64,000 nucleotides of DNA from positions 6,341 through 70,340 of the forward strand of contig JBDSDR010000020.1 of the NCBI GenBank assembly GCA_039920385.1, in the 5' to 3' direction. The stretch is from Candidatus Saccharimonadales bacterium (GTDB taxonomy: Bacteria > Patescibacteriota > Saccharimonadia > Saccharimonadales > JAUPVS01). Shown in pieces: positions 6,755 to 50,869 of the stretch (position 1 is the stretch's first letter; the number at the start of each line of letters is the position of its first letter). A program made the translations under genes and the position numbers. The notes under the pieces were generated by a model. It was not told where the DNA came from and did not search any database. It saw only the letters and a list, made by a program, of their open reading frames with translations.

Positions 6755-6994
6755 CTAGTAGCCAAGCTCGAGGTCGCGTAATCGTTCACCATAAGCTTTG
6801 AGCTCGTAACTGTGATCTGTTACAACCGCCCTCATAACCGTAACCTCGGCCTTTAGTTGGTTCAAATCTTCTTTAATGTTCCGGATGTCGCTGGGTACTT
6901 TGGCCAGTGCTTCGTCTAAGGCTATTAACCTTGCTAGGATATCCTTTAGGATCATTTGGGTCGTTTTTTGTGAAGCCACCATAACGCCCATCAT
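6755..6994 (-). CDS. Small coiled-coil protein, unexpanded relative of the D-x-R-F repeat proteins at 43595 and 48239
   Basis: 79 aa. The C-terminus IRNIKEDLNQLKAEVTVMRAVVTDHSYELKAYGERLRDLE resembles LRRDVSELKTDMKDVKINLRTIKKVLTATNAQVTDHDFRITRLE of the 48239 product. The N-terminal T..ILKDILARL resembles TNQDILEAL of the 43595 product. Confidence 0.55.
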   Translation of the reverse strand: MMGVMVASQKTTQMILKDILARLIALDEALAKVPSDIRNIKEDLNQLKAEVTVMRAVVTDHSYELKAYGERLRDLELGY

Positions 6995-7099
6995 AGTGGC
7001 TAGACAGTAGTAATGGCAATCAAAATGAATAGTTAATTAAAAGTTAAGGATTAAGCAATTACTTTGGCCGGATGATACCAAGATGTTACCATAAGTGTA

Positions 7100-42446: not shown

Positions 42447-43535
42447 ATGCAGGAATTAATCTCACAGTTATCAGAACTTCAGTCGAGCGTGACAGAAGCT
42501 CTAAAAACGCTCCAAATTAGCCAGCTAGAAAATGAGCTGGCTTCATTGGCCGCTAAAAGTCAGCAGGCTGATTTTTGGAGTGATCAAATAGCCGCCCAGG
42601 CCACAATGAAGCAACAGTCAAATCTGCAAGCTCGAATCGAGCCTTGGCGGGAGCTTGAAAAACAAATTAGCGATGCCCTAGAATTAGCCGAACTCAACGA
42701 CGCTAGCGTGGAGGTTGACCTCCAAAAACAACTGAAGATTCTTAACAAACAACTCCAGGGTTTTAAACGGGAACTGCAGTTTAATGGACCGTACGACGAT
42801 TTAGATGCGATTGTTTCAATTCATGCTGGTGCCGGCGGTACCGACGCCCAAGACTGGGCGCAGATGCTACTAAGGATGTATGTGCGCTGGGCCGAACAGC
42901 AAAAGCTTAAGGTCGAGGTTATCGATCAGGCAAATGGCGACGAAGCCGGCCTAAAAAGTGTAACTTTCGAAATCAGCGGGCCGTTTGCTTACGGCAAACT
43001 ACAGGGTGAGCATGGTGTTCATCGTCTAGTCCGGCTTAGCCCATTTAATTCCGATAATTTACGCCAAACTAGTTTTGCCAAGATCGAGGTTTTGCCCAAA
43101 GTCGAAACTGCCGATAAGCTTGAGATTGATGACAAGGATTTGAAGATTGATGTTTACCGCTCCGGCGGTAAGGGCGGACAATCAGTTAACACGACCGATT
43201 CAGCCGTCCGCATTACTCACATACCGTCCGGTATAACGGTGGCCATTCAAAACGAGCGTTCTCAGTTGCAAAACCGTGAAACTGCTATGACTATCCTGCG
43301 CTCGCGTCTAGCCCAACTACAACTGGAGCAACATCAAGAAAAGCTGGCTGGGATTAAAGGGCCTAACCAATCAGCTGAGTGGGGTAATCAAATTCGCAGC
43401 TATGTATTGCATCCCTACAAGCAAGTAAAAGACTTGCGGACTAAGCACGAAACTAGCGATGCCGAGGCGGTTTTAGACGGTAAGCTCCAGCCCTTCATCG
43501 ATGCTTATTTAGAAAACCAGCTTACTAACAACTAA
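42447..43535 (+). CDS. prfB: Peptide chain release factor 2, single uninterrupted ORF
   Basis: Contains the SPF motif (RLSPFNS) and GGQ (SGGKGGQSVN). TATAAT at 42433-42438 lies 8 nt upstream of the ATG. Confidence 0.95.
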   Translation: MQELISQLSELQSSVTEALKTLQISQLENELASLAAKSQQADFWSDQIAAQATMKQQSNLQARIEPWRELEKQISDALELAELNDASVEVDLQKQLKILNKQLQGFKRELQFNGPYDDLDAIVSIHAGAGGTDAQDWAQMLLRMYVRWAEQQKLKVEVIDQANGDEAGLKSVTFEISGPFAYGKLQGEHGVHRLVRLSPFNSDNLRQTSFAKIEVLPKVETADKLEIDDKDLKIDVYRSGGKGGQSVNTTDSAVRITHIPSGITVAIQNERSQLQNRETAMTILRSRLAQLQLEQHQEKLAGIKGPNQSAEWGNQIRSYVLHPYKQVKDLRTKHETSDAEAVLDGKLQPFIDAYLENQLTNN

Positions 43536-43594
43536 AAGTTGTAATTTATAACAGCCTTAAGATTCTGTTAATTTTCTAATTGTATAGTAGCGGT

Positions 43595-43900
43595 ATGGCT
43601 AGCACAGATGTTACCAATCAAGACATTCTTGAAGCACTGAATGTATTCGCAATCAGTGTTGATGGGCGCTTCACGGCTGTCGACAAACGATTTACTGCCA
43701 TTGATGACCGATTTACTGCCATCGACAAACGCTTTGACCAGATAGATCTGCGGCTTAGCTTTGTGGAAAACCAAAATCATTCAATTGGCTACGAGCTACG
43801 TGAGGTTAAACAAAAGGTCGAAGATATCGACGGTCGGCTGATAGGGGTAGAGAACGACATTAAAGAAGTATATAGCTACTTACCGCTAACCGCTACATAA
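43595..43900 (+). CDS. Small coiled-coil protein with heptad D-x-R-F repeats
   Basis: Repeats read VDGRFTA VDKRFTA IDDRFTA IDKRFDQ IDLRLSF. TATAGT at 43583-43588 lies 6 nt upstream of ATG 43595. The track TTG at 43580 is rejected. Confidence 0.7.
   Translation: MASTDVTNQDILEALNVFAISVDGRFTAVDKRFTAIDDRFTAIDKRFDQIDLRLSFVENQNHSIGYELREVKQKVEDIDGRLIGVENDIKEVYSYLPLTAT
43661..43765 (+). repeat. Five tandem 21-bp (7-aa) coding repeats
   Basis: The units are gatgggcgcttcacggctgtc / gacaaacgatttactgccatt / gatgaccgatttactgccatc / gacaaacgctttgaccagata / gatctgcggcttagctttgtg. Confidence 0.85.
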
Positions 43901-44018
43901 AAAGTTTGCAATAGCCCGCTGCGCGGCCTTACCAAACTAACGACAGGTATGCGGACATAACCTCACGATGTTCGGTTGTGCCCGTGCACCTGACGTAAAG
44001 TTTGCTATAATAAAGCTA

Positions 44019-44702
44019 ATGATTTTATTGGACAGGGTAACTAAGGTTTATGGCAAAGGTATGGCACCGGCGCTGGACCGTATAAACTTGCACGTCGAGC
44101 CGCGTGAGTTTGTGATTGTAGTCGGGGCCAGTGGTGCTGGTAAATCAACTCTTCTTAAGCTTCTGACCAGGGAAGAGAAGCCAACCAGTGGCAAAATAAT
44201 TGTTGGTGGAATCGATTACGACAAACTTAAAGATAAAGAAATTCCTTATTTGCGACGTCGAATTGGTACGGTTTTCCAGGATTTTAAGCTTCTTCCCAAT
44301 AAGACTGTTTTCGAAAATGTTGCCTTTGCACTCGAGATTGTCGGTACCGGCAAGCACGAAATTCACTATACTGTGCCGCGTGTGCTCGACATTGTTGGAC
44401 TTAAAGGCAAAGAAAAACGCATGCCGCTCGAATTATCAGGCGGTGAAAGACAGCGGGTGGCAATTGCTCGAGCAATTGCACGGCAGCCCAAGATTTTGAT
44501 TGCCGACGAGCCAACCGGTAACCTTGACCCCAAGCACGCCTGGGATGTTGTCAAAGTCCTCCAAAAGATTAACCAATACGGTACAACGGTCCTACTAACT
44601 ACTCATAACCAAGAAATTGTTAACAAACTGAAGCGCCGGGTAATTACAATTAGCGACGGCAAAATTGCCAGCGATCACGCTCAGGGAGCCTACAAAGGGT
44701 GA
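44019..44702 (+). CDS. ftsE: Cell-division ABC ATPase FtsE
   Basis: Contains GASGAGKST (Walker A), [14 protein letters not shown] and [15 protein letters not shown] at 44006-44011 lies 7 nt upstream of ATG 44019. Confidence 0.93.
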
Positions 44703-44704
44703 GT

Positions 44705-45649
44705 ATGAAACGTAAACTAATCGTACTAGAACGAATCACCAAAGCCGGAGCTGTTAACTTTGTGCGCAATGCCTGGTTGTCGGCGGCCGCCATCGCCGTT
44801 ATGGTAATTACTCTAACAATTGTTCTGTTTTCGGTTATTGCTCGGGCGACGTTCAATAACACCATTACCCAAATCAATAACAAAATTGATGTCTCGGTCT
44901 ACCTAAAAGACGAAATCACCGACGAACAAAAGAATAACTTAATTAAAGAAGTTAAACAGCTACGAACCGTTAAATCAGTTGAGTATGTTTCTAAGGATGA
45001 TGCCCTAAAGAGTTACAAACAAGCTAACCAAGACAATCTTGATCTTCTGGTGGCCATTTCACAAACCGACAACCCACTACCAGCCAGTTTAAAAATCAAA
45101 CCGGTTGACCCTAATAAGCTCGACGAATTAAGGGTCTTCCTCGAGAAGTCCGAAAATAAACAGCTGCAGTCAGACCAAACCTCCTATTCGGGCGATCGCA
45201 AAGAGGCCATCGACAAAATTAGTAGTGCCACCAGCTTCTTCCAGAAGGGGGGACTAATCGGCATTCTTATCTTTACCTTTATCTCGATGCTAATTATCTT
45301 TAATACCATCAGAATGGCTATCTTCAATCGCCGCGATGAGCTTAATATTATGCGTTTGCTGGGGGCCAGCACCTGGTTTATCCGCGGGCCATTTATTGTT
45401 GAGACGATGTTATACGGGTTTGTGGCGGCAATTTTGTCGGTTCTTATCTGTAATGGTTTATTCAGTTTATCGTCGACGACGTTTGAGGCCAGTAGTCTAG
45501 GTCTGCTCGATATCAGTTATGCCAACAAGTACTTTTTAGACCATTACTGGTTTATCTTGACCGCGCAGATTGGCATCGGTATAGTAATTGGTGCCGCCTC
45601 ATCATACTTAGCGACCCGGCGGTATCTCAAATTCAAAAGTCCAAAATAG
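44705..45649 (+). CDS. ftsX: Cell-division permease-like protein FtsX
   Basis: Follows ftsE. Shows one TM helix, a large extracytoplasmic loop and three C-terminal TM helices. An alternative GTG start at 44699 would overlap the ftsE stop. Confidence 0.88.
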   Translation: MKRKLIVLERITKAGAVNFVRNAWLSAAAIAVMVITLTIVLFSVIARATFNNTITQINNKIDVSVYLKDEITDEQKNNLIKEVKQLRTVKSVEYVSKDDALKSYKQANQDNLDLLVAISQTDNPLPASLKIKPVDPNKLDELRVFLEKSENKQLQSDQTSYSGDRKEAIDKISSATSFFQKGGLIGILIFTFISMLIIFNTIRMAIFNRRDELNIMRLLGASTWFIRGPFIVETMLYGFVAAILSVLICNGLFSLSSTTFEASSLGLLDISYANKYFLDHYWFILTAQIGIGIVIGAASSYLATRRYLKFKSPK

Positions 45650-45746
45650 CAGCAATTCAACAATTTAGTGCAAGGACACTTAACTTCGGTTATTGCAATG
45701 TCCTGGGGGGTATGTTATTATGCTAATGCTAACTCATAAAAACAAA

Positions 45747-46889
45747 ATGAAAAAACAAAAAGCTACACCGGTCAGAAGGTTTTTGACGAACACCCGCAAC
45801 ATTACGGGCATGCTGATGATTATTGCCGTTTTGGTAATTGGCATGAGTATTAAGCCATCAGTTAAAGCCGACAGCGTAAGCGACCAAATTAATACCCTGC
45901 AACAAGAGAATGCCCGCAATAACGACGTTGTGGCTAACCTACAAGATCAAGCTACCAGTTACCAAGATGCTATCGGTAAACTACAAGCCGCTATTGCTAC
46001 CTTGCAGTCACAAATTGATGCCAATACCGCCGAGCAAAATCGTTTACAAACCGAAATCACCAATGCCGAGAACGAGCTGGTCAAGCAAAAAGAAGTACTC
46101 GGCACCAATATTAAGCAAATGTATCTCGAAGGACAAATCTCTACTCTAGAAATGTTGGCTTCCAGTAAAGACCTTAGCCAATTCGTCGACAAACAGCAGT
46201 ACCGTAACTCTGTGCAACAGAAAATCAAAACCACGCTCGATAAAATTACCGCTTTAAAGCACCAGTTGAACAGCCAGAAAGAGCAGATTGAAAAGCTTTT
46301 AGCCGATCAAAAACAAAAACAATCCAGTCAACAAGCTAGCCGGGCCGAACAAGCCAACTTACTTTCCTTCAACGAAGGCCAACAGTCGGTTTATAACCAA
46401 AAAACTAAAGATAATCAATCGAAGATCGACGCTTTAATCGCTTCACAGCGTCGGGCTAACTTTAACCCTGATGGTGGCTATTACTTCCTGCGTTTCCCAG
46501 GGCCGGTTAACGGTATCAACCCTAACGCCTATCCTTATGCTAATGCTGGTTTTGGAATGAGTCCTGGACCTGGCTGTGTCGACAATGACGGGCCCGATCC
46601 ATGGGGTTACTGTACTCGCCAATGTGTGTCTTACACTGCTTGGGCTGTCCAGGCATCAGGCCGATCTGCACCATCCTTTTATGGCAATGCCCGTGACTGG
46701 GTAGGCGCCGCCTACGCTCGTGGTATTCAGGTTTCACGAACTCCACAACCTGGTGACGTGGCTATCAGCACATCTGGTTACTGGGGACACGCCATGTATG
46801 TCCAAGGGGTGTCTGGCGGATCATTCACTACCAGTGAGTACAACACCTATTTAACTGGCCAACTATCTTACCAAACCCGAAATTATTAA
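45747..46889 (+). CDS. PcsB-like peptidoglycan hydrolase: signal anchor, long coiled coil and C-terminal CHAP domain
   Basis: The coiled coil is Q/L/K-rich. CHAP Cys lies in TRQCVSYTAWAV and His in GHAMYV. The start is uncertain (45726 or 45747). A TTGCAA-N17-TATTAT promoter lies at 45693-45721. Confidence 0.8.
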   Translation: MKKQKATPVRRFLTNTRNITGMLMIIAVLVIGMSIKPSVKADSVSDQINTLQQENARNNDVVANLQDQATSYQDAIGKLQAAIATLQSQIDANTAEQNRLQTEITNAENELVKQKEVLGTNIKQMYLEGQISTLEMLASSKDLSQFVDKQQYRNSVQQKIKTTLDKITALKHQLNSQKEQIEKLLADQKQKQSSQQASRAEQANLLSFNEGQQSVYNQKTKDNQSKIDALIASQRRANFNPDGGYYFLRFPGPVNGINPNAYPYANAGFGMSPGPGCVDNDGPDPWGYCTRQCVSYTAWAVQASGRSAPSFYGNARDWVGAAYARGIQVSRTPQPGDVAISTSGYWGHAMYVQGVSGGSFTTSEYNTYLTGQLSYQTRNY

Positions 46890-46956
46890 ACTCTAGAACA
46901 TCAAGCCATAAACGGTTACAATAATGGTTCAAGATGCTTAAAAAGAGGGGATACCT

Positions 46957-48180
46957 GTGGTTCAACCTGTGCCAGACCAACCAACTGAAAAGAAACGTTC
47001 CAAACGCTCCAAAATCGCTCTCAAACGGATTGCACTAGTAGTTTTCGCAGCAGCAATATTTATCCTGGGGTTAAATATTGGCAGTGGTAGAATTACTTTC
47101 TCTAACCAAACTGGTGTTCAAAAGAACCTACCAAATAAGCTCGATTACACATCGGTTAATGAACTGTATCGGGCTCTAAAAGCTAACTTTGATGGTGAAC
47201 TCGATACCACCAAACTAACTGATGGCATGAAGCAGGGCCTAGTTAAGGCCGCTGGCGACCCTTATACCGAATATCTAAGTGCTGCTGAGTATAAAGACTT
47301 TAATGATCAATTAAGCGGCTCGTTTACGGGTATTGGGGCCGAGTTAAGCCAAGGTAGTGATGGCAGTATCGTGATTGTTTCGCCAATTGCCGGTTTCCCA
47401 GCCGAAAAGGCTGGCCTCAAGCCAAAGGATGTAATTGTCGAGATTGATGGCACCTCTACCGCCGGAATGACAGTTTCCGAAGCGGTCCAAAAAATTCGCG
47501 GTCCAAAAGATTCTTCCGTTAAGCTAAAGATTATACGCGGCAGTACACCGGTCGAAGTAACAATTGTTCGTCAAGATATTTCCATCCCAAGTGTTAATAG
47601 CAAGGTCGAAAACGGCATCGGTTATCTAACGATTAGTCGGTTTGGCGAAGACACAGCCAGTTTAGCTAAGGCTGCTGCCGAAGACTTTAAACAACAGAAT
47701 GTTAAGGGTGTGGTGGTAGACGTCAGAAGCAACCCAGGCGGCTTGTTAGACGCCGCCGTGTCGGTTTCGAGCTTGTGGCTGCCTAAAGGCACGACTGTGC
47801 TGACAGAGCGGCGTGATGGCTTGGTGACCAATACTTTTAAAGCCGAAGGTGGTGATGTCCTCAAAGGCATTCCAACCGTCGTTCTAATCGATGGTGGTAG
47901 TGCCAGCGCCAGCGAAATTTTGGCCGGTGCTCTCAAAGACAACGGGGCAGCCAGCCTAGTCGGCGAAAAGTCATACGGTAAAGGTAGCGTTCAGCAACTA
48001 ATTAAACTTGATGGCGGCGGTGTCCTTAAAGTTACTATCGCACGTTGGTTTACACCCGGTGGCAAAAACATCGACAAGGCCGGCATCGAACCCGATAAAA
48101 AAGTGACTATTACGCCGGATGACGCCAAAAATGGCAATGACCCGCAAAAATCGGCCGCTACCCAGCAACTCAGCCAGTAA
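46957..48180 (+). CDS. ctpA: S41 C-terminal processing (tail-specific) protease with PDZ domain
   Basis: Contains the PDZ segment AGLKPKDVIVEIDG, Ser in GGSASASEILAGALKD and Lys in SYGKGSVQ. The GTG start has GAGGGG 8 nt upstream. Confidence 0.88.
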   Translation: MVQPVPDQPTEKKRSKRSKIALKRIALVVFAAAIFILGLNIGSGRITFSNQTGVQKNLPNKLDYTSVNELYRALKANFDGELDTTKLTDGMKQGLVKAAGDPYTEYLSAAEYKDFNDQLSGSFTGIGAELSQGSDGSIVIVSPIAGFPAEKAGLKPKDVIVEIDGTSTAGMTVSEAVQKIRGPKDSSVKLKIIRGSTPVEVTIVRQDISIPSVNSKVENGIGYLTISRFGEDTASLAKAAAEDFKQQNVKGVVVDVRSNPGGLLDAAVSVSSLWLPKGTTVLTERRDGLVTNTFKAEGGDVLKGIPTVVLIDGGSASASEILAGALKDNGAASLVGEKSYGKGSVQQLIKLDGGGVLKVTIARWFTPGGKNIDKAGIEPDKKVTITPDDAKNGNDPQKSAATQQLSQ

Positions 48181-48238
48181 ATTAATCATCTTTTAATAGT
48201 TTTTGCGATCCAAAATAGGCGCATGATAGGCTGTTAGT

Positions 48239-48700
48239 ATGAAAGAAAAAACGACTGCAGTCATTACCCTAAACGACCTAGACGAACGTTTCGCCGCCAG
48301 TGCCAAAGACCTAGACGAACGTTTCGCCGCCAGTGCCAAAGACCTAGACAGGCGCTTTTCCGCGAACGCCAAAGATTTAGATAAACGCTTTGCTGCCAAC
48401 GCCAAAGATCTCGACCAACGTTTTGCTGCGTATACCCAGTCTATGGATAGTCGCTTTGCCTTATACATCCAAGCTATGGACAAACGTTTTGCTATTGCCG
48501 AGGCAGCATCAGATCGTAAGTTTCAGATAGTTCTTGAAATAGCTCAAGATATCGGTATGTTACGGCGTGATGTTTCTGAGCTAAAAACAGACATGAAAGA
48601 TGTCAAAATCAACCTAAGAACTATCAAGAAAGTCCTAACTGCCACAAATGCCCAGGTAACCGACCATGACTTTAGAATTACTCGTCTAGAAACAGCTTAG
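48239..48700 (+). CDS. Small coiled-coil protein with hendecad (11-aa) D-x-R-F repeats
   Basis: Repeats read LDERFAASAKD x2 (identical), LDRRFSANAKD, LDKRFAANAKD, LDQRFAAYTQS, MDSRFALYIQA, MDKRFAIAEAA. The C-terminus is shared with the 6755 product. Confidence 0.75.
   Translation: MKEKTTAVITLNDLDERFAASAKDLDERFAASAKDLDRRFSANAKDLDKRFAANAKDLDQRFAAYTQSMDSRFALYIQAMDKRFAIAEAASDRKFQIVLEIAQDIGMLRRDVSELKTDMKDVKINLRTIKKVLTATNAQVTDHDFRITRLETA
48278..48541 (+). repeat. Eight tandem 33-bp coding repeats; the first two are identical
   Basis: ctagacgaacgtttcgccgccagtgccaaagac occurs at 48278-48310 and again at 48311-48343. Progressively diverged copies follow, each starting with (c/t)t(a/c)ga(c/t)... or atgga(t/c).... 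Confidence 0.9.
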
Positions 48701-48787
48701 TCTGCGAGGCCCATTGTAAAAGCGACCTTGGAAATAACCACAAAATGCGGTAGCATATTAAGGAATAACGAAGGGGTAGTAATAGAG

Positions 48788-50392
48788 GTGGCAAAGCGAC
48801 CAACTAAATTTATATTTGTGACAGGTGGTGTGCTTTCGGGGCTCGGTAAAGGCATCACCGCCGCCTCCATCGGTAACCTCTTAAAAGCTCGCGGCCTAAG
48901 CGTCAACCTCCAAAAGTGCGACCCCTATCTTAATACCGATGCTGGTACGCTTAACCCGGCTGAACACGGCGAATGCTTCGTTACTAAAGATGGTGCCGAA
49001 ACCGATCTTGATCTTGGTCACTACGAACGCTTTCTCGACCAAGAGCTGACTCAGGCCAGCTCTTTGATGAGTGGTCGCGTCTTAAGTAAGGTTATCGAAG
49101 ATGAACGAAACGGCAAATACCTTGGTAAAACCGTCCAGTTCATACCCCATGTAACTAGCGCTAGCCAAGAAGAAATCCTTAAAGCTGCTGATGGCTTTGA
49201 TGTTCACATTGTCGAAATCGGCGGCACAGTGGGTGATTACGAGGGCTTAAGCTTTCTAGAGGCAATTCGCGAACTAGCCTTTAAGGTTGGCCGCGAAAAC
49301 TGTACCTACGTACACGTTGTTTATATGCCATACCTCGGTGCCAGCCACGAATTTAAGACTAAGCCGGCCCAAAATGCTGTACGTGAACTGCGTGGCTTGG
49401 GCGTTGTACCGGACGTTTTAGTAGTCCGAAGCGAACAGGCCGCTCCCAAAAATGTTATCGACAAACTGAGCTTATTTTCTGGTGTCCCCACCGAAGCTGT
49501 GGCGCTTTTGCCCAATGCCAGGACTATTTACGATGTGCCACTAACGCTCGAAGACGCCGGAATTGCCGATTTCATCGGTCGACGACTCGATCTTAAGATT
49601 AAAAAACCCGACCTCAAACAGTGGCGAGCAGTTGTTCAGAAGGCCACCAAAGATCATAAGCATACTGTAACCGTCGGTGTGGTCGCTAAATATATGGACA
49701 ACCAGGATACTTACATGTCGGTGTTCGAAGCTTTGCGAGCGGCTGGTTGGGCGCACGATGCTAAAGTCGAAATTAAATGGATTGATGCCGAGAAGCTCGA
49801 AAAAGCCAAAAACCCAGGCACTATGCTAAAAGATGTCGATGGCGTCGTCGTGCCTGGTGGCTTTGGTGTGCGCGGCCTCGAAGGCAAAATTAAGGCAGCC
49901 CAATACTGCTTAGCAGAAAAAGTTCCGTATCTTGGTTTGTGCCTCGGTTTGCAAATGGCGGTAATTGCCGCCGCTCGCAACGCTGGGCTTAAAGATGCTA
50001 CCACTTTTGAGCTTAACCCCAAGGGCGAGAATCAAGTCATCCACTTTATGGCCGACCAAAAAGGCAAAGAAAACACTGGGGGCACCATGCGGCTCGGTGA
50101 TTATCCGTGCGTAATCGAAAAGGGCAGTTTAGCAGCGAAGGTTTACGGTACGACTAAAATTACCGAACGACACCGTCATCGCCTAGAATGTAACAATCAG
50201 TACCGCGATCAGTACCAAAAATGGGGGATTAAAGCAGTTGGCCTATCACCCGATCACCATTTGGTCGAAATGATTGAGGCGATTGATCACCCCTTCATGA
50301 TGGCCAGCCAATTCCACCCCGAATTCAAATCGCGTCCCAATCGACCACACCCAATGTTCGAAGGCTTCATTAACTCACTCTTGAAAAATTAA
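48788..50392 (+). CDS. pyrG: CTP synthase
   Basis: Contains KFIFVTGGVLSGLGKG and the GATase triad region LGLCLGLQ. GTG 48788 is preferred over the track TTG at 48728 by comparison with typical PyrG N-termini. Confidence 0.93.
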   Translation: MAKRPTKFIFVTGGVLSGLGKGITAASIGNLLKARGLSVNLQKCDPYLNTDAGTLNPAEHGECFVTKDGAETDLDLGHYERFLDQELTQASSLMSGRVLSKVIEDERNGKYLGKTVQFIPHVTSASQEEILKAADGFDVHIVEIGGTVGDYEGLSFLEAIRELAFKVGRENCTYVHVVYMPYLGASHEFKTKPAQNAVRELRGLGVVPDVLVVRSEQAAPKNVIDKLSLFSGVPTEAVALLPNARTIYDVPLTLEDAGIADFIGRRLDLKIKKPDLKQWRAVVQKATKDHKHTVTVGVVAKYMDNQDTYMSVFEALRAAGWAHDAKVEIKWIDAEKLEKAKNPGTMLKDVDGVVVPGGFGVRGLEGKIKAAQYCLAEKVPYLGLCLGLQMAVIAAARNAGLKDATTFELNPKGENQVIHFMADQKGKENTGGTMRLGDYPCVIEKGSLAAKVYGTTKITERHRHRLECNNQYRDQYQKWGIKAVGLSPDHHLVEMIEAIDHPFMMASQFHPEFKSRPNRPHPMFEGFINSLLKN

Positions 50393-50416
50393 CCAAATCC
50401 TTGTAGCATTAGCAAT

Positions 50417-50869
50417 ATGGAACCAACCGCAACACCACCAACCCCGGCAGCTCAACCCAATCCGCAAACTCCGCCGCCGGCCGCTCCACCAGCCAGCGCC
50501 AGCAAAAAGATTTTACTAGTCGAAGACGATGATGCCCTAGCAACAGTGTATGTTACCCGGCTACAAGCCGAGGGCTTTGATGTTAAGCGGGTACCTAATG
50601 GTGAGGAAGCCCTCGCCACCGCCCTACAGTACAAGCCAGATCTTATTTTGCTCGATGTTATGATGCCTAAAGTCAGCGGTTTCGACGTACTCGATATTTT
50701 GCGTAATACTCCCGAAACTTCGGCCGTTAAGGTCATTATGTTAACCGCCTTAAGCCAAGACAGTGACAAAGACCGAGCTACTCAACTTGGTGCCGACGAC
50801 TACTTAGTTAAGTCCCAAGTTGTGATTGCTGATGTGGTCGACCGCATCCGACATCACTTAGGTATCTAG
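50417..50869 (+). CDS. Single-domain (CheY-like) response regulator with a Pro-rich N-terminal extension
   Basis: Canonical receiver residues are present: VEDDD, LILLDVMMP (phospho-Asp), MLTAL (Thr) and YLVKS (Lys). Confidence 0.88.
   Translation: MEPTATPPTPAAQPNPQTPPPAAPPASASKKILLVEDDDALATVYVTRLQAEGFDVKRVPNGEEALATALQYKPDLILLDVMMPKVSGFDVLDILRNTPETSAVKVIMLTALSQDSDKDRATQLGADDYLVKSQVVIADVVDRIRHHLGI

Follow-up and report, generated by a model that had tools for sequence, protein, structure and literature searches.

The window analysed here, a 64,000-nt stretch of DNA, contains between ctpA and pyrG a gene whose 153-residue product is built of 11-residue repeats in its N-terminal part and ends in a 68-residue module shared with a family of small proteins (Table 1). 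The frame was listed with exactly these boundaries among the mechanical open reading frames, and cutting 33-bp units from position 48278 reproduced all eight unit peptides of the initial annotation. The protein (17.4 kDa, pI 8.8) contains no proline, cysteine or tryptophan and a single glycine, and it has neither a signal peptide nor a hydrophobic segment. Strand and frame are fixed by the C-terminal homology. The gene is real, and its product is modelled as an all-helical rod protein.

The window PyrG and the gene order agree with Saccharimonadales MAGs, and a PyrG scan returned 80 loci with titles that nearly all name Saccharibacteria or Saccharimonadales (top identity 85%). The ctpA-pyrG slot of the four closest relatives measures 50-90 bp and holds no gene, the window having ~560 bp extra, and the median gap across 74 Saccharimonadales genomes is 92 bp. 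No orthologue of the gene was found around pyrG in 80 Saccharimonadales loci, just one of which (L043) carries a 69-aa member of the family in this slot. The gene has been inserted here on its own; pyrG itself has a promoter element TAGCAT (48750-48755) and a GTG start at 48788.

Table 1 Features of the repeat-containing gene, its locus and the two other reading frames discussed
Feature	Position	Strand	Description and basis
Lineage-specific segment	48181..48742	.	ctpA stop to conserved pyrG promoter; comparison with four closest relatives
Putative promoter	48203..48232	+	-35-like TTGCGA (48203-48208), 18-nt spacer, extended -10 TGaTAGGCT (48224-48232); read from sequence
Coding sequence	48239..48700	+	ATG to TAG, 153 aa
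Youngest duplication	48275..48349	+	Exact 42-nt direct repeat at 33-nt offset (48275-48316 = 48308-48349); read from sequence
Repeat array	48278..48541	+	Eight in-frame 33-bp (11-aa) units; consensus L-D-x-R-F-A-A-x-A-K-D
C-terminal family module	48494..48697	+	Residues 86-153 (68 residues); family HMM match
Candidate trimerization motif	48674..48691	+	R146-I-T-R-L-E151; fits Arg(g)-h(a)-x-x-h(d)-Glu(e), heptad positions included
Paralogue	6755..6994	-	79 aa, canonical family size, no repeat array; family HMM without window sequences E=7.4e-21
Coiled-coil ORF	43595..43900	+	101 aa; four or five 7-residue [VI]-D-x-R-F-T-A repeats; D-x-R-F alone in common with the 153-aa protein

With the -10 element of the putative promoter ending 6 nt upstream of the ATG, the mRNA would be leaderless, and no Shine-Dalgarno sequence precedes the start codon. 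The same -10-to-ATG geometry was seen in all eight family members examined outside this genome as well as in the window paralogue; among the long ORFs of the window it occurs in 17 of 52, compared to 9% at random positions. A consensus scan for promoters and terminators called neither for this gene, the proposed promoter included, and ATAGGCT is found 14 times in the window against 7 +/- 2.6 expected, which is not a clear enrichment. Together with the shared geometry, the sequence upstream of the ATG suggests that the gene is probably leaderless and has its own promoter.

The array comprises the units LDERFAASAKD (twice), LDRRFSANAKD, LDKRFAANAKD, LDQRFAAYTQS, MDSRFALYIQA, MDKRFAIAEAA and SDRKFQIVLEI. 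Tandem Repeats Finder reported positions 48275-48426 (period 33, 4.6 copies, 81% matches, score 157) as the sole period-33 array, and also the highest-scoring array, of the window. Units 1 and 2 were found to be identical at 33 of 33 nucleotides, as the initial annotation had stated, and this identity upholds the recent duplication that it read from them. Identity to unit 1 declines from 5′ to 3′ (33, 33, 23, 24, 20, 14, 16 and 8 of 33 for units 1 to 8). Because unit 8 lies at chance level (~8/33) in DNA, it is recognisable as protein alone, through D-R-K-F, and the array is composed of seven clear DNA units and one degenerate unit. The 42-nt direct repeat is the sole substrate for slippage by plus or minus one unit, and the gradient of identity suggests that the array grew with its youngest copies at the 5′ end. 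At the protein level the proposed hendecad periodicity was borne out, with D-x-R-F occurring seven times at a spacing of exactly 11 residues (chance ~6e-23 from the protein's own composition); in the hendecad register F occupies position a, the eighth and ninth residues occupy d and e, and L occupies h.

An exact-sequence look-up of the protein returned no record, and a word-indexed homologue search with the full-length sequence gave one match (P0001), via the repeat alone. An exhaustive phmmer search gave 167 matches, the strongest of which were repeat-only and came from heterogeneous proteins (Mab-21, RRM, zinc finger and DUF3782/PDDEXK); these were discarded as evidence of homology. Near-equal 11-mers of the form h-D-x-R-F-A-A-h-x-x-x make up long tandem arrays in DUF3782/PD-(D/E)XK (PDDEXK_10) proteins such as P0003, where the hendecads read M-D-x-R-F-A-A-M-Q-E-Q, and in stand-alone arrays such as P0001. 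The flanking domains differ, with a nuclease in P0003, and the top array matches include unrelated eukaryote-type proteins; the similarity is therefore one of repeats and not evidence of common descent. A metagenome scan for close relatives that might differ in repeat copy number found none, and no other collection searched contained one. The combination of RF repeats with the C-terminal module was shared by one of the phmmer relatives, P0038, and this distant case is the one exception to the lack of an orthologue of the architecture in ~15 billion proteins.

The initial annotation could assign the protein to no family. For curated collections this holds: scans of the protein, both other ORFs and family members against Pfam, NCBIfam, PHROGs and PADLOC yielded sub-threshold, generic coiled-coil matches, and no family reached its cut-off. 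However, an HMM of 50 members, built without the window sequences, matched residues 86-153 over HMM positions 12-79 of 80 (E=3.8e-19, 62.9 bits), and the protein was placed in an uncurated family of at least 246 proteins at E<=1e-3. These proteins have a median length of 79 residues, nearly all measure 75-90 residues, and a Pfam domain is absent from nearly all of them; among the matches listed, three of the four members named by NCBI are Candidatus Saccharimonadales. Literature searches brought up no account of a family like this from Saccharibacteria or Patescibacteria. The family consensus is MQSLxDDERKxVLGEVLxDELKAIxEYVxDVPxIKxxVxxLxxDxxELKSDMKVVKAAVTDxSxQxxDHExRITRLExA.

The module of the 153-aa protein aligns with this family end to end and retains every near-invariant residue; taxon, the C-terminal R-h-x-x-h-E element and the leaderless promoter geometry are also common to both. 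The protein differs from the family in its length, which lies outside the usual 75-90 residues, in an I-G in place of the conserved V-P helix break, and in its N-terminal helix, which is replaced or extended by the eight hendecads. The N-helix of the closest family subgroup ('LEDINxKFxxxLEI') aligns with units 7-8. No RF array was present in the 119 other family members read (of at least 246), and P0038 was the one phmmer relative to have one; a different in-helix expansion, by heptad repeats, is seen in the member P0161. AlphaFold2 modelled a canonical member (P0083) as two helices with a break at the conserved V-P, and Foldseek returned 0 matches for this two-helix model in the PDB. Judged from its sequence, the 153-aa protein is an expanded variant of the ~79-aa family.

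Two further ORFs of the window had been tied to the protein through its C-terminal helix, making a family of at least three. One of these links stands: the 6755 ORF is a clear member and also matches the 153-aa protein directly by BLASTP (E=2e-5). The 43595 ORF was ruled out, with an E-value of 0.27 against the family HMM and an hhalign probability of 4% for ORFs of its type against the family. It has orthologues in the same prfB-ftsE slot of two other loci (L013 and L016) and matches phage PHROGs without an assigned function; the mechanical list starts it at 43580 (TTG), but the ATG at 43595 is preferred, a TATAGT box being located 6 nt before this codon. A haemolysin XhlA (PF10779) match of the 6755 ORF remained at 17.9 bits against a threshold of 34.7. 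For the 153-aa protein a holin-like identity was rejected, the XhlA model being absent from its matches and the protein having no hydrophobic segment.

Residues I105-L150 form a regular heptad coiled coil, with I105, V112, M119, L126, L133, V140 and I147 at the a positions and L108, L115, V122, I129, T136, H143 and L150 at the d positions, and the hendecad register of the array joins it without a break. AlphaFold2 predicted the monomer as one continuous helix spanning residues 11-152 (mean pLDDT 94.8, pTM 0.47), a long helix being the outcome for almost any such sequence. The hydrophobic moment of the array peaks near 98-100 degrees (0.31, compared to 0.11 +/- 0.06 in shuffles) and that of the C-terminal part near 103 degrees.

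The protein ends in TDHDFRITRLETA, which fits the ending D-H-[ED]-x-R-I-T-R-L-E. No element of the family is better conserved than R-h-x-x-h-E: 104 of 120 members have it within their last 14 residues, compared to a background rate of 0.2 per 1000 aa, with the glutamate at position 151 invariant and R146 and L150 conserved at 90% or more. This motif has been defined as specifying parallel three-stranded coiled coils (PMC3653964; PMC6173795). The motif, exact here as RITRLE in the g-a-b-c-d-e register, is shared with coronin-1, the FapF periplasmic domain and engineered GCN4 and cortexillin (PMC3653964; PMC6173795), although there is no sequence homology to these parallel trimers outside the motif and the trimer is a prediction for the protein studied here. 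Many of the proteins that the family profile matched best in the PDB are trimeric coiled coils (gp26, CC-Tri peptides, UspA1, trimeric autotransporter fragments and Lpp); every similarity to PDB or Pfam entries, for protein and family alike, is sub-threshold and typical of coiled-coil composition bias. From its motif and register, the protein is predicted to be a homo-oligomer, probably a parallel trimer. The conserved polar surface of the module (K-x-D, T-D and D-H-E) would be the likeliest partner-binding site.

Canonical family members resemble ZapB (81 aa), Lpp and HSBP1-like proteins in size class and helix-only build. Matches to ZapB (2 of 52 members) and Lpp (4 of 52) were weak and reached no cut-off, the protein and its family differ from Lpp in having neither lipobox nor signal peptide, and no linkage of the family to cell division survived cross-genome comparison.

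Taken together, these results support, with moderate confidence, a model in which the protein is a cytoplasmic, homo-oligomeric and probably trimeric coiled-coil rod, the N-terminal helix of which has grown by hendecad duplication. The entirely alpha-helical chain would assemble into a rod ~21 nm long, most likely as a parallel trimer, with the conserved 68-residue module forming the regular heptad coiled coil that ends in R-h-x-x-h-E. The ancestral N-terminal helix, already containing one '[ND]-x-K-F-x-x-x-L-E' segment, would have been lengthened by successive in-frame 33-bp tandem duplications. Since each unit corresponds to exactly three helical turns (~1.6 nm), the hydrophobic stripe of L, F and a small residue would stay in phase, and for this reason the array may be regarded as an extension of rod length rather than a new domain. 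Transcription would start at a promoter belonging to the gene itself and yield a leaderless mRNA.

Hendecads are also compatible with a different role, the initial annotation having named them as characteristic of lipid- or membrane-binding helices as well as of right-handed coiled coils. In this reading the array would form an 11/3 amphipathic helix on membranes, lipid droplets or desiccated surfaces, and the protein would be a lipid- or stress-associated coat like apolipoproteins, perilipin, alpha-synuclein or group-3 LEA proteins. Apolipoproteins A1, A4 and E are secreted and contain proline-punctuated 22-mer (2 x 11) amphipathic repeats. An apolipoprotein-like component is measurable: the 11-residue amphipathic periodicity is exact and is shared with apolipoproteins A-I, A-IV and E (and, by analogy, with perilipin, alpha-synuclein and LEA3), Apolipoprotein PF01442 is the top Pfam match (E=3.8e-6), and apoA-IV is the top PDB match (E=8e-7 for the whole protein, 0.13 per stretch). 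Units 1-4 have a HeliQuest-style moment of 0.43-0.48, the Ala-rich hendecad face could accommodate a membrane or lipid, and the apolar positions 1, 5 and 9 agree with the LEA3 11-mer consensus. For perilipins, 11-mer repeats are described as the lipid-targeting element (PMC4807253; PMC5889406).

However, the PF01442 match amounts to 27.2 bits, below the gathering threshold of 90, and the protein has neither proline-punctuated 22-mers nor a signal peptide. No LEA_4, Perilipin or Synuclein model appeared among its Pfam matches even at E<=10. Units 1-4 offer two large apolar positions per 11 residues and a narrow apolar face (arc ~100-130 degrees); the array as a whole has a net charge of 0 and no Lys/Arg belt, and it passes directly into the canonical heptad coiled coil bearing the trimerization motif. 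Because the apolar positions are so few, the charge is neutral and one predicted helix runs on into the heptads, the array resembles a coiled-coil core stripe more than a surface for binding lipid. Moreover, the lack of an RF array in the other members read indicates that it is not the functional core of the family. The hendecad periodicity stands, and a lipid coat is an unlikely explanation of it.

A neutral or degenerative origin would make the gene a young and dispensable duplicate with an N-terminus drifting by slippage and no specific function. Such an origin is consistent with the near-absence of the architecture elsewhere, with the lack of the gene in the four closest relatives and with the presence of a canonical paralogue in the same window. 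Against it, the frame is intact through all eight units, and codon differences among units 1-4 are more often synonymous than not (4:3, 6:2 and 3:2; 13 vs 7 in total). Codon changes such as CTA/TTA/CTC, GAC/GAT, CGT/CGC and TTC/TTT leave L, D, R and F unaltered. The hydrophobic stripe is in phase with the C-terminal core and the module keeps all its near-invariant residues, which leaves neutral drift rather improbable.

It is also conceivable, while quite doubtful, that the gene is accessory cargo of mobile, phage or defence origin rather than one for a housekeeping structural protein; it could be what remains of a phage fibre or needle coiled coil, or encode a small protein that partners a nuclease or defence system. 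The lineage-specific insertion of a single gene fits this idea, as do the positions of some family members in variable regions: beside CBASS CD-NTase/Cap15 and an integrase, in the vicinity of Mrr, HNH and toxin-antitoxin genes, or close to Fic and DUF87. Others adjoin housekeeping genes (UvrA and L25, FBPase, SmpB), and the neighbourhoods of eight members revealed no neighbour conserved family-wide. The three members closest to the 153-aa protein (the P0213/P0241/P0247 clade) each lie immediately upstream of an Exo_endo_phos gene, the loci being partly syntenic and counting as a single observation. A phage connection is hinted at by the PHROGs matches of the 43595 ORF and by the P22-type tail needle gp26 (PDB 4lin, 4zxq), in which a long helix and a recurring heptad segment 'D-H-E-x-R-I-t' recall the family. 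The gp26 match of the family profile has a whole-sequence E-value of 5e-4 and a best stretch i-E of 0.45, and the protein lacks both the N-terminal gp10-binding domain and the C-terminal tip. No relative was detected in the viral contigs scanned or in a tblastn search of the C-terminal module against 50,697 phage records, and identity with gp26 was rejected. No PADLOC model scored better than E=1e-3, the best values of 0.0014-0.0025 falling in coiled-coil stretches of LmuB, GajB and ZorA.

That the real gene is instead the antisense ORF open across the array (48193..48483, 96 aa, TTG start), or that the repeat is a non-coding element, is extremely improbable, as this ORF covers the array only in part together with its upstream flank and belongs to no family, third codon positions coincide in both frames so that the antisense frame is open as a reflection of the repeat, the plus frame runs on into a module with family homology (E=4e-19), and an Rfam scan of the region matched no family.

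The coiled-coil rod therefore remains our preferred reading of the protein. A bolder extension of it, which we regard as a long shot, is that the ~79-aa proteins are abundant, specific to Saccharibacteria, and serve as trimeric coiled-coil adaptors or cytoskeletal elements that bind a partner through a conserved surface; the pairing with Exo_endo_phos would hint at partners in DNA repair or at nucleases. Expansions of the helix by hendecads in the protein studied here and by heptads in P0161, P0101 and others would then adjust the length of the rod, acting as an adaptive 'molecular ruler', and the identity of units 1 and 2 would be a sign that this length is still varying.

Saccharibacteria are reduced-genome epibionts in which a large share of genes has no assigned function. 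One such family is defined here: it numbers at least 246 small proteins, is marked by a sharp C-terminal signature and is predicted to form a trimeric coiled coil. The gene between ctpA and pyrG presents a member of this family that grew by in-phase hendecad duplication, a tidy example of coiled-coil growth through tandem repeats rather than a new mechanism. If the family is an abundant scaffold or adaptor, it would be a good entry point into how Saccharibacteria cells work, and the protein described here would be its natural length variant.

The repeat proved genuine at the DNA level. Cutting the sequence into eight 33-bp units from 48278 reproduced every peptide quoted in the initial annotation, and the reported identity of the first two copies was confirmed (33/33 nt). 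An exact direct repeat of 42 nt was read directly from the sequence, and Tandem Repeats Finder called a period of 33 with 4.6 copies (score 157), the sole period-33 array and the top-scoring array within the window. From 5′ to 3′ the units share 33, 33, 23, 24, 20, 14, 16 and 8 of 33 nt with unit 1, so that unit 8 is recognisable as protein only. The D-x-R-F motif recurs seven times in the target protein at a spacing of exactly 11 residues (chance probability ~6e-23 given the protein's own composition). The initial description of the repeat is accurate and its interpretation is correct in part.

Within units 1-4, more codon differences are synonymous than non-synonymous (4:3, 6:2 and 3:2), and the array residues that are conserved (L, D, R and F) use varying codons (CTA/TTA/CTC, GAC/GAT, CGT/CGC and TTC/TTT, respectively), the pattern expected under selection on the peptide. 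Strand and frame are fixed by the strong homology to the family that the plus frame shows further on, in its C-terminal region. An antisense ORF composed of AKRLSxSLALA repeats was rejected as a gene; since the third codon positions of both frames coincide, it simply mirrors the repeat and is a shadow ORF that gene finders could mis-call. An Rfam scan of the target region gave zero family matches.

Positions of the target, its signals and related loci (window coordinates unless a locus in another genome is named)
Feature	Locus	Position	Strand	Remarks
Target ORF	window	48239..48700	+	ATG start, 153 aa, from ORF list
Array of eight units	window	48278-48541	+	33 bp/11 aa each
42-nt direct repeat	window	48275-48316 = 48308-48349		exact
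Tandem Repeats Finder call	window	48275-48426		period 33
Antisense ORF	window	48193..48483	-	96 aa; spans part of array and its upstream flank
-10-like hexamer (TAnAAT or TAnnnT), 6-10 nt before start	window	48224-48241		no Shine-Dalgarno sequence
Same	window	6994-7015	-	no Shine-Dalgarno sequence
Same	window	43583-43597		no Shine-Dalgarno sequence
Same, upstream of family genes	L005, L007, L008, L043, L090, L092, L094, L095
ORF at 6755	window	6755..6994	-	79 aa
ORF at 43595	window	43595..43900	+	TATAGT 6 nt upstream of ATG
Orthologue of ORF at 43595	L013	5361-5690		prfB-ftsE slot
Orthologue of ORF at 43595	L016	5274-5594		prfB-ftsE slot
prfB to response regulator	window	42447-50869		also loci L010-L089
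pyrG promoter TAGCAT	window	48750-48755		conserved in alignment with relatives
pyrG start GTG	window	48788		Shine-Dalgarno-like GAAGGGG; mechanical ORF start TTG 48728
P0001 gene	L001	6001-6606		also in L002-L004
P0247, P0213 and P0241 genes, upstream of Exo_endo_phos	L094; L095/L096; L099	5001-6067; 5001-6070; 5001-6071		co-oriented, 12-70 nt upstream
CBASS-like pair, integrase, primase	L007	6266-7806		adjoin P0154 gene

The initial annotation had assigned the protein to no known family. This held for the curated libraries (Pfam, NCBIfam, PHROGs and PADLOC), where it reached the cut-off of no family; the last three gave only weak coiled-coil noise, and the top Pfam match, Apolipoprotein (PF01442), scored 27 bits where the cut-off is 90. 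The suggested likeness to apolipoprotein and LEA proteins stands for hendecad periodicity but goes no further. An uncurated family was, however, found. An exhaustive phmmer search with the target returned 167 proteins in two classes. In the first, residues ~10-100, covering the array, matched proteins of all sizes and kinds, including Mab-21, RRM and zinc-finger proteins and a DUF3782/PD-(D/E)XK protein whose hendecads read MDxRFAAMQEQ; the similarity here is at the level of the repeat and is no evidence of common descent. In the second, residues ~83-153 matched stand-alone proteins of 63-87 aa. A profile (A1) built from this second class retrieved at least 246 proteins (E<=1e-3), nearly all of 75-90 aa and nearly all without a Pfam domain; of the four NCBI-named family members among the matches listed, three are Candidatus Saccharimonadales. 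An independent HMM, built from 50 members with the window sequences left out, matched residues 86-153 of the target (E=3.8e-19). Within this uncurated family of small coiled-coil proteins, in which almost every named member comes from Saccharimonadales, the target is an expanded form. Literature searches found no published description of a family of this kind in Saccharibacteria or Patescibacteria, and an exact-sequence look-up found no record of the target protein.

The C-terminal helix had also been said to link the target to the ORFs at 6755 and 43595. The former belongs to the family (E=7.4e-21 against the independent HMM), but the latter does not (E=0.27; 4% probability in profile-profile comparison) and shares with the target only D-x-R-F, as 7-residue [VI]DxRFTA repeats. 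This small coiled-coil ORF carries four or five such heptads, probably starts at ATG 43595 rather than TTG 43580, and has its best matches among phage PHROGs of unknown function (phrog_12015, E=7e-9). Separately, the 201-aa protein P0001 contains five M-D-E-R-F-A-A-L-Q-Q-Q hendecads and is encoded between truA and rplM in a ribosomal-protein gene cluster, its start overlapping truA by 29 nt.

AlphaFold2 predicted the target as a single helix spanning residues 11-152 (mean pLDDT 94.8, pTM 0.47), with a calculated length of ~21 nm at 0.15 nm per residue. For the canonical member P0083 the prediction gave two helices (6-28 and 31-78), interrupted at a conserved V-P where the target has I-G. The hydrophobic moment of the array is 0.31 at 98.2 degrees vs 0.11 +/- 0.06 for shuffled sequences. 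Its 11/3 hydrophobic stripe comprises L/M at position 1, F at 5 and A/T/I at 9, with Y/V added at 8 in later units. In units 1-4, large apolar residues occupy just two positions per 11, and the array as a whole has a net charge of 0; this pattern agrees more closely with the a/d/e/h core of a coiled coil than with a wide face that binds lipid. Towards the C-terminus the protein continues in phase as a regular heptad coiled coil (I105-L150). Its last heptad, R146-I-T-R-L-E151, has the residues of the published parallel-trimer motif R-h-x-x-h-E at the matching heptad positions, Arg(g)-h(a)-x-x-h(d)-Glu(e) (PMC3653964). No other element of the family is conserved as strongly as this motif (E151 invariant; R146 and L150 at least 90% conserved), which lies within the last 14 residues of 104/120 members, against 0.2 occurrences per 1000 aa in the long ORFs of the window. 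The best, though weak, PDB matches of the family profile include many trimeric coiled coils; among the matches are CC-Tri peptides, UspA1, trimeric autotransporter fragments, Lpp and the P22-type tail needle, which carries 'DHExRIt'. From these sequence features we infer that the target may form a parallel homotrimer. A cytoplasmic homo-oligomeric, probably trimeric rod is reasonably supported, in which the C-terminal module is conserved and bears a conserved polar surface, and the array extends the length.

In the closest subgroup (P0021, P0213, P0241, P0247, P0252 and others), an N-terminal helix '...LEDINxKFxxxLEI...' aligns with units 7-8 of the target, 'RFAIAEAASDRKFQIVLEIA', indicating that the ancestral helix already had one [ND]-x-K-F segment. 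The units diverge progressively towards the 3′ end, and the first two, at the 5′ end, remain identical. The simplest reading would be that 33 bp were duplicated in frame again and again, the youngest copies lying at the 5′ end; every copy would add three helical turns and so preserve the phase of the core stripe. The hendecad array extends the helix in phase and is a product of tandem duplication, a mechanism ordinary among coiled-coil proteins. The 42-nt repeat could serve as a slippage substrate for gain or loss of one unit. P0038 has the same layout of RF repeats plus C-terminal module (E=2.7e-14), and heptad-repeat expansions were seen inside P0161, P0101, P0047 and P0126 (e.g. VSQLKSD x4 and DVTxLKS runs); helix lengthening thus recurs in the family in different registers, while 116/120 members are of 100 aa or less. 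The best full-length relatives of the target are 30-44% identical, and a metagenome scan for close relatives found none.

Scanning species-representative genomes with the adjacent PyrG yielded 80 loci, and the titles of nearly all of these name Saccharibacteria or Saccharimonadales. The best PyrG identity was 85%, too low for the window's own species to be one of the genomes scanned. The order prfB-ftsE-ftsX-pcsB(CHAP)-ctpA-pyrG-response regulator is kept in more than 70 Saccharimonadales genomes; a median of 92 bp (n=74) separates ctpA from pyrG. In the four closest relatives (L010-L013) this gap is 50-90 bp long and contains no gene. Homology with them ends just past the ctpA stop and restarts at ~48743, at the conserved pyrG promoter, Shine-Dalgarno sequence and GTG start, which identifies the intervening ~560 bp (48181-48742) as a lineage-specific single-gene insertion. 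The comparison also marks these signals as the genuine ones for pyrG, in preference to the TTG of the mechanical ORF. Among the 80 loci, L043 is the sole other genome with a family member in this slot (69 aa, without repeats). The prfB|ftsE and ctpA|pyrG slots range from <10 bp to ~5 kb, hold unrelated genes in different genomes and look like insertion hot spots.

In every family member whose upstream DNA was read, a TAnAAT-type hexamer ends 6-10 nt before the ATG without a Shine-Dalgarno sequence, which suggests leaderless mRNAs. In the target, TGaTAGGCT ends 6 nt short of the ATG, and TTGCGA precedes the hexamer by 18 nt; a generic promoter scan did not call this site and found no terminator. 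The target is predicted to be expressed. The same geometry occurs at 17/52 long ORFs of the window vs 9% at random positions, so leaderless starts appear to be widespread across the genome of this Saccharibacterium rather than peculiar to the family.

Gene neighbourhoods differ completely among the eight family members examined (UvrA, DedA and L25; a CBASS and integrase island; Fic and DUF87; FBPase and glyoxalase; Mrr, HNH and toxin-antitoxin genes), except for the three closest to the target's C-terminal module. The CBASS-like pair (CD-NTase C-terminal domain and Cap15-type effector) lies on a 424-kb metagenome contig, in what appears to be an island of defence or mobile genes. Searches of viral contigs, phage genomes and defence-system models found no relatives of the family or target. 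The three exceptions (P0247, P0213 and P0241) each lie directly upstream of an Exo_endo_phos (PF03372) gene and may form an operon with it in this clade; as the loci are partly syntenic, the pairing counts as one observation, and the window holds no such gene. The finding is of modest interest in that it defines a family that is widespread and unannotated, bears a sharp trimerization signature and belongs to a phylum about which little is understood.
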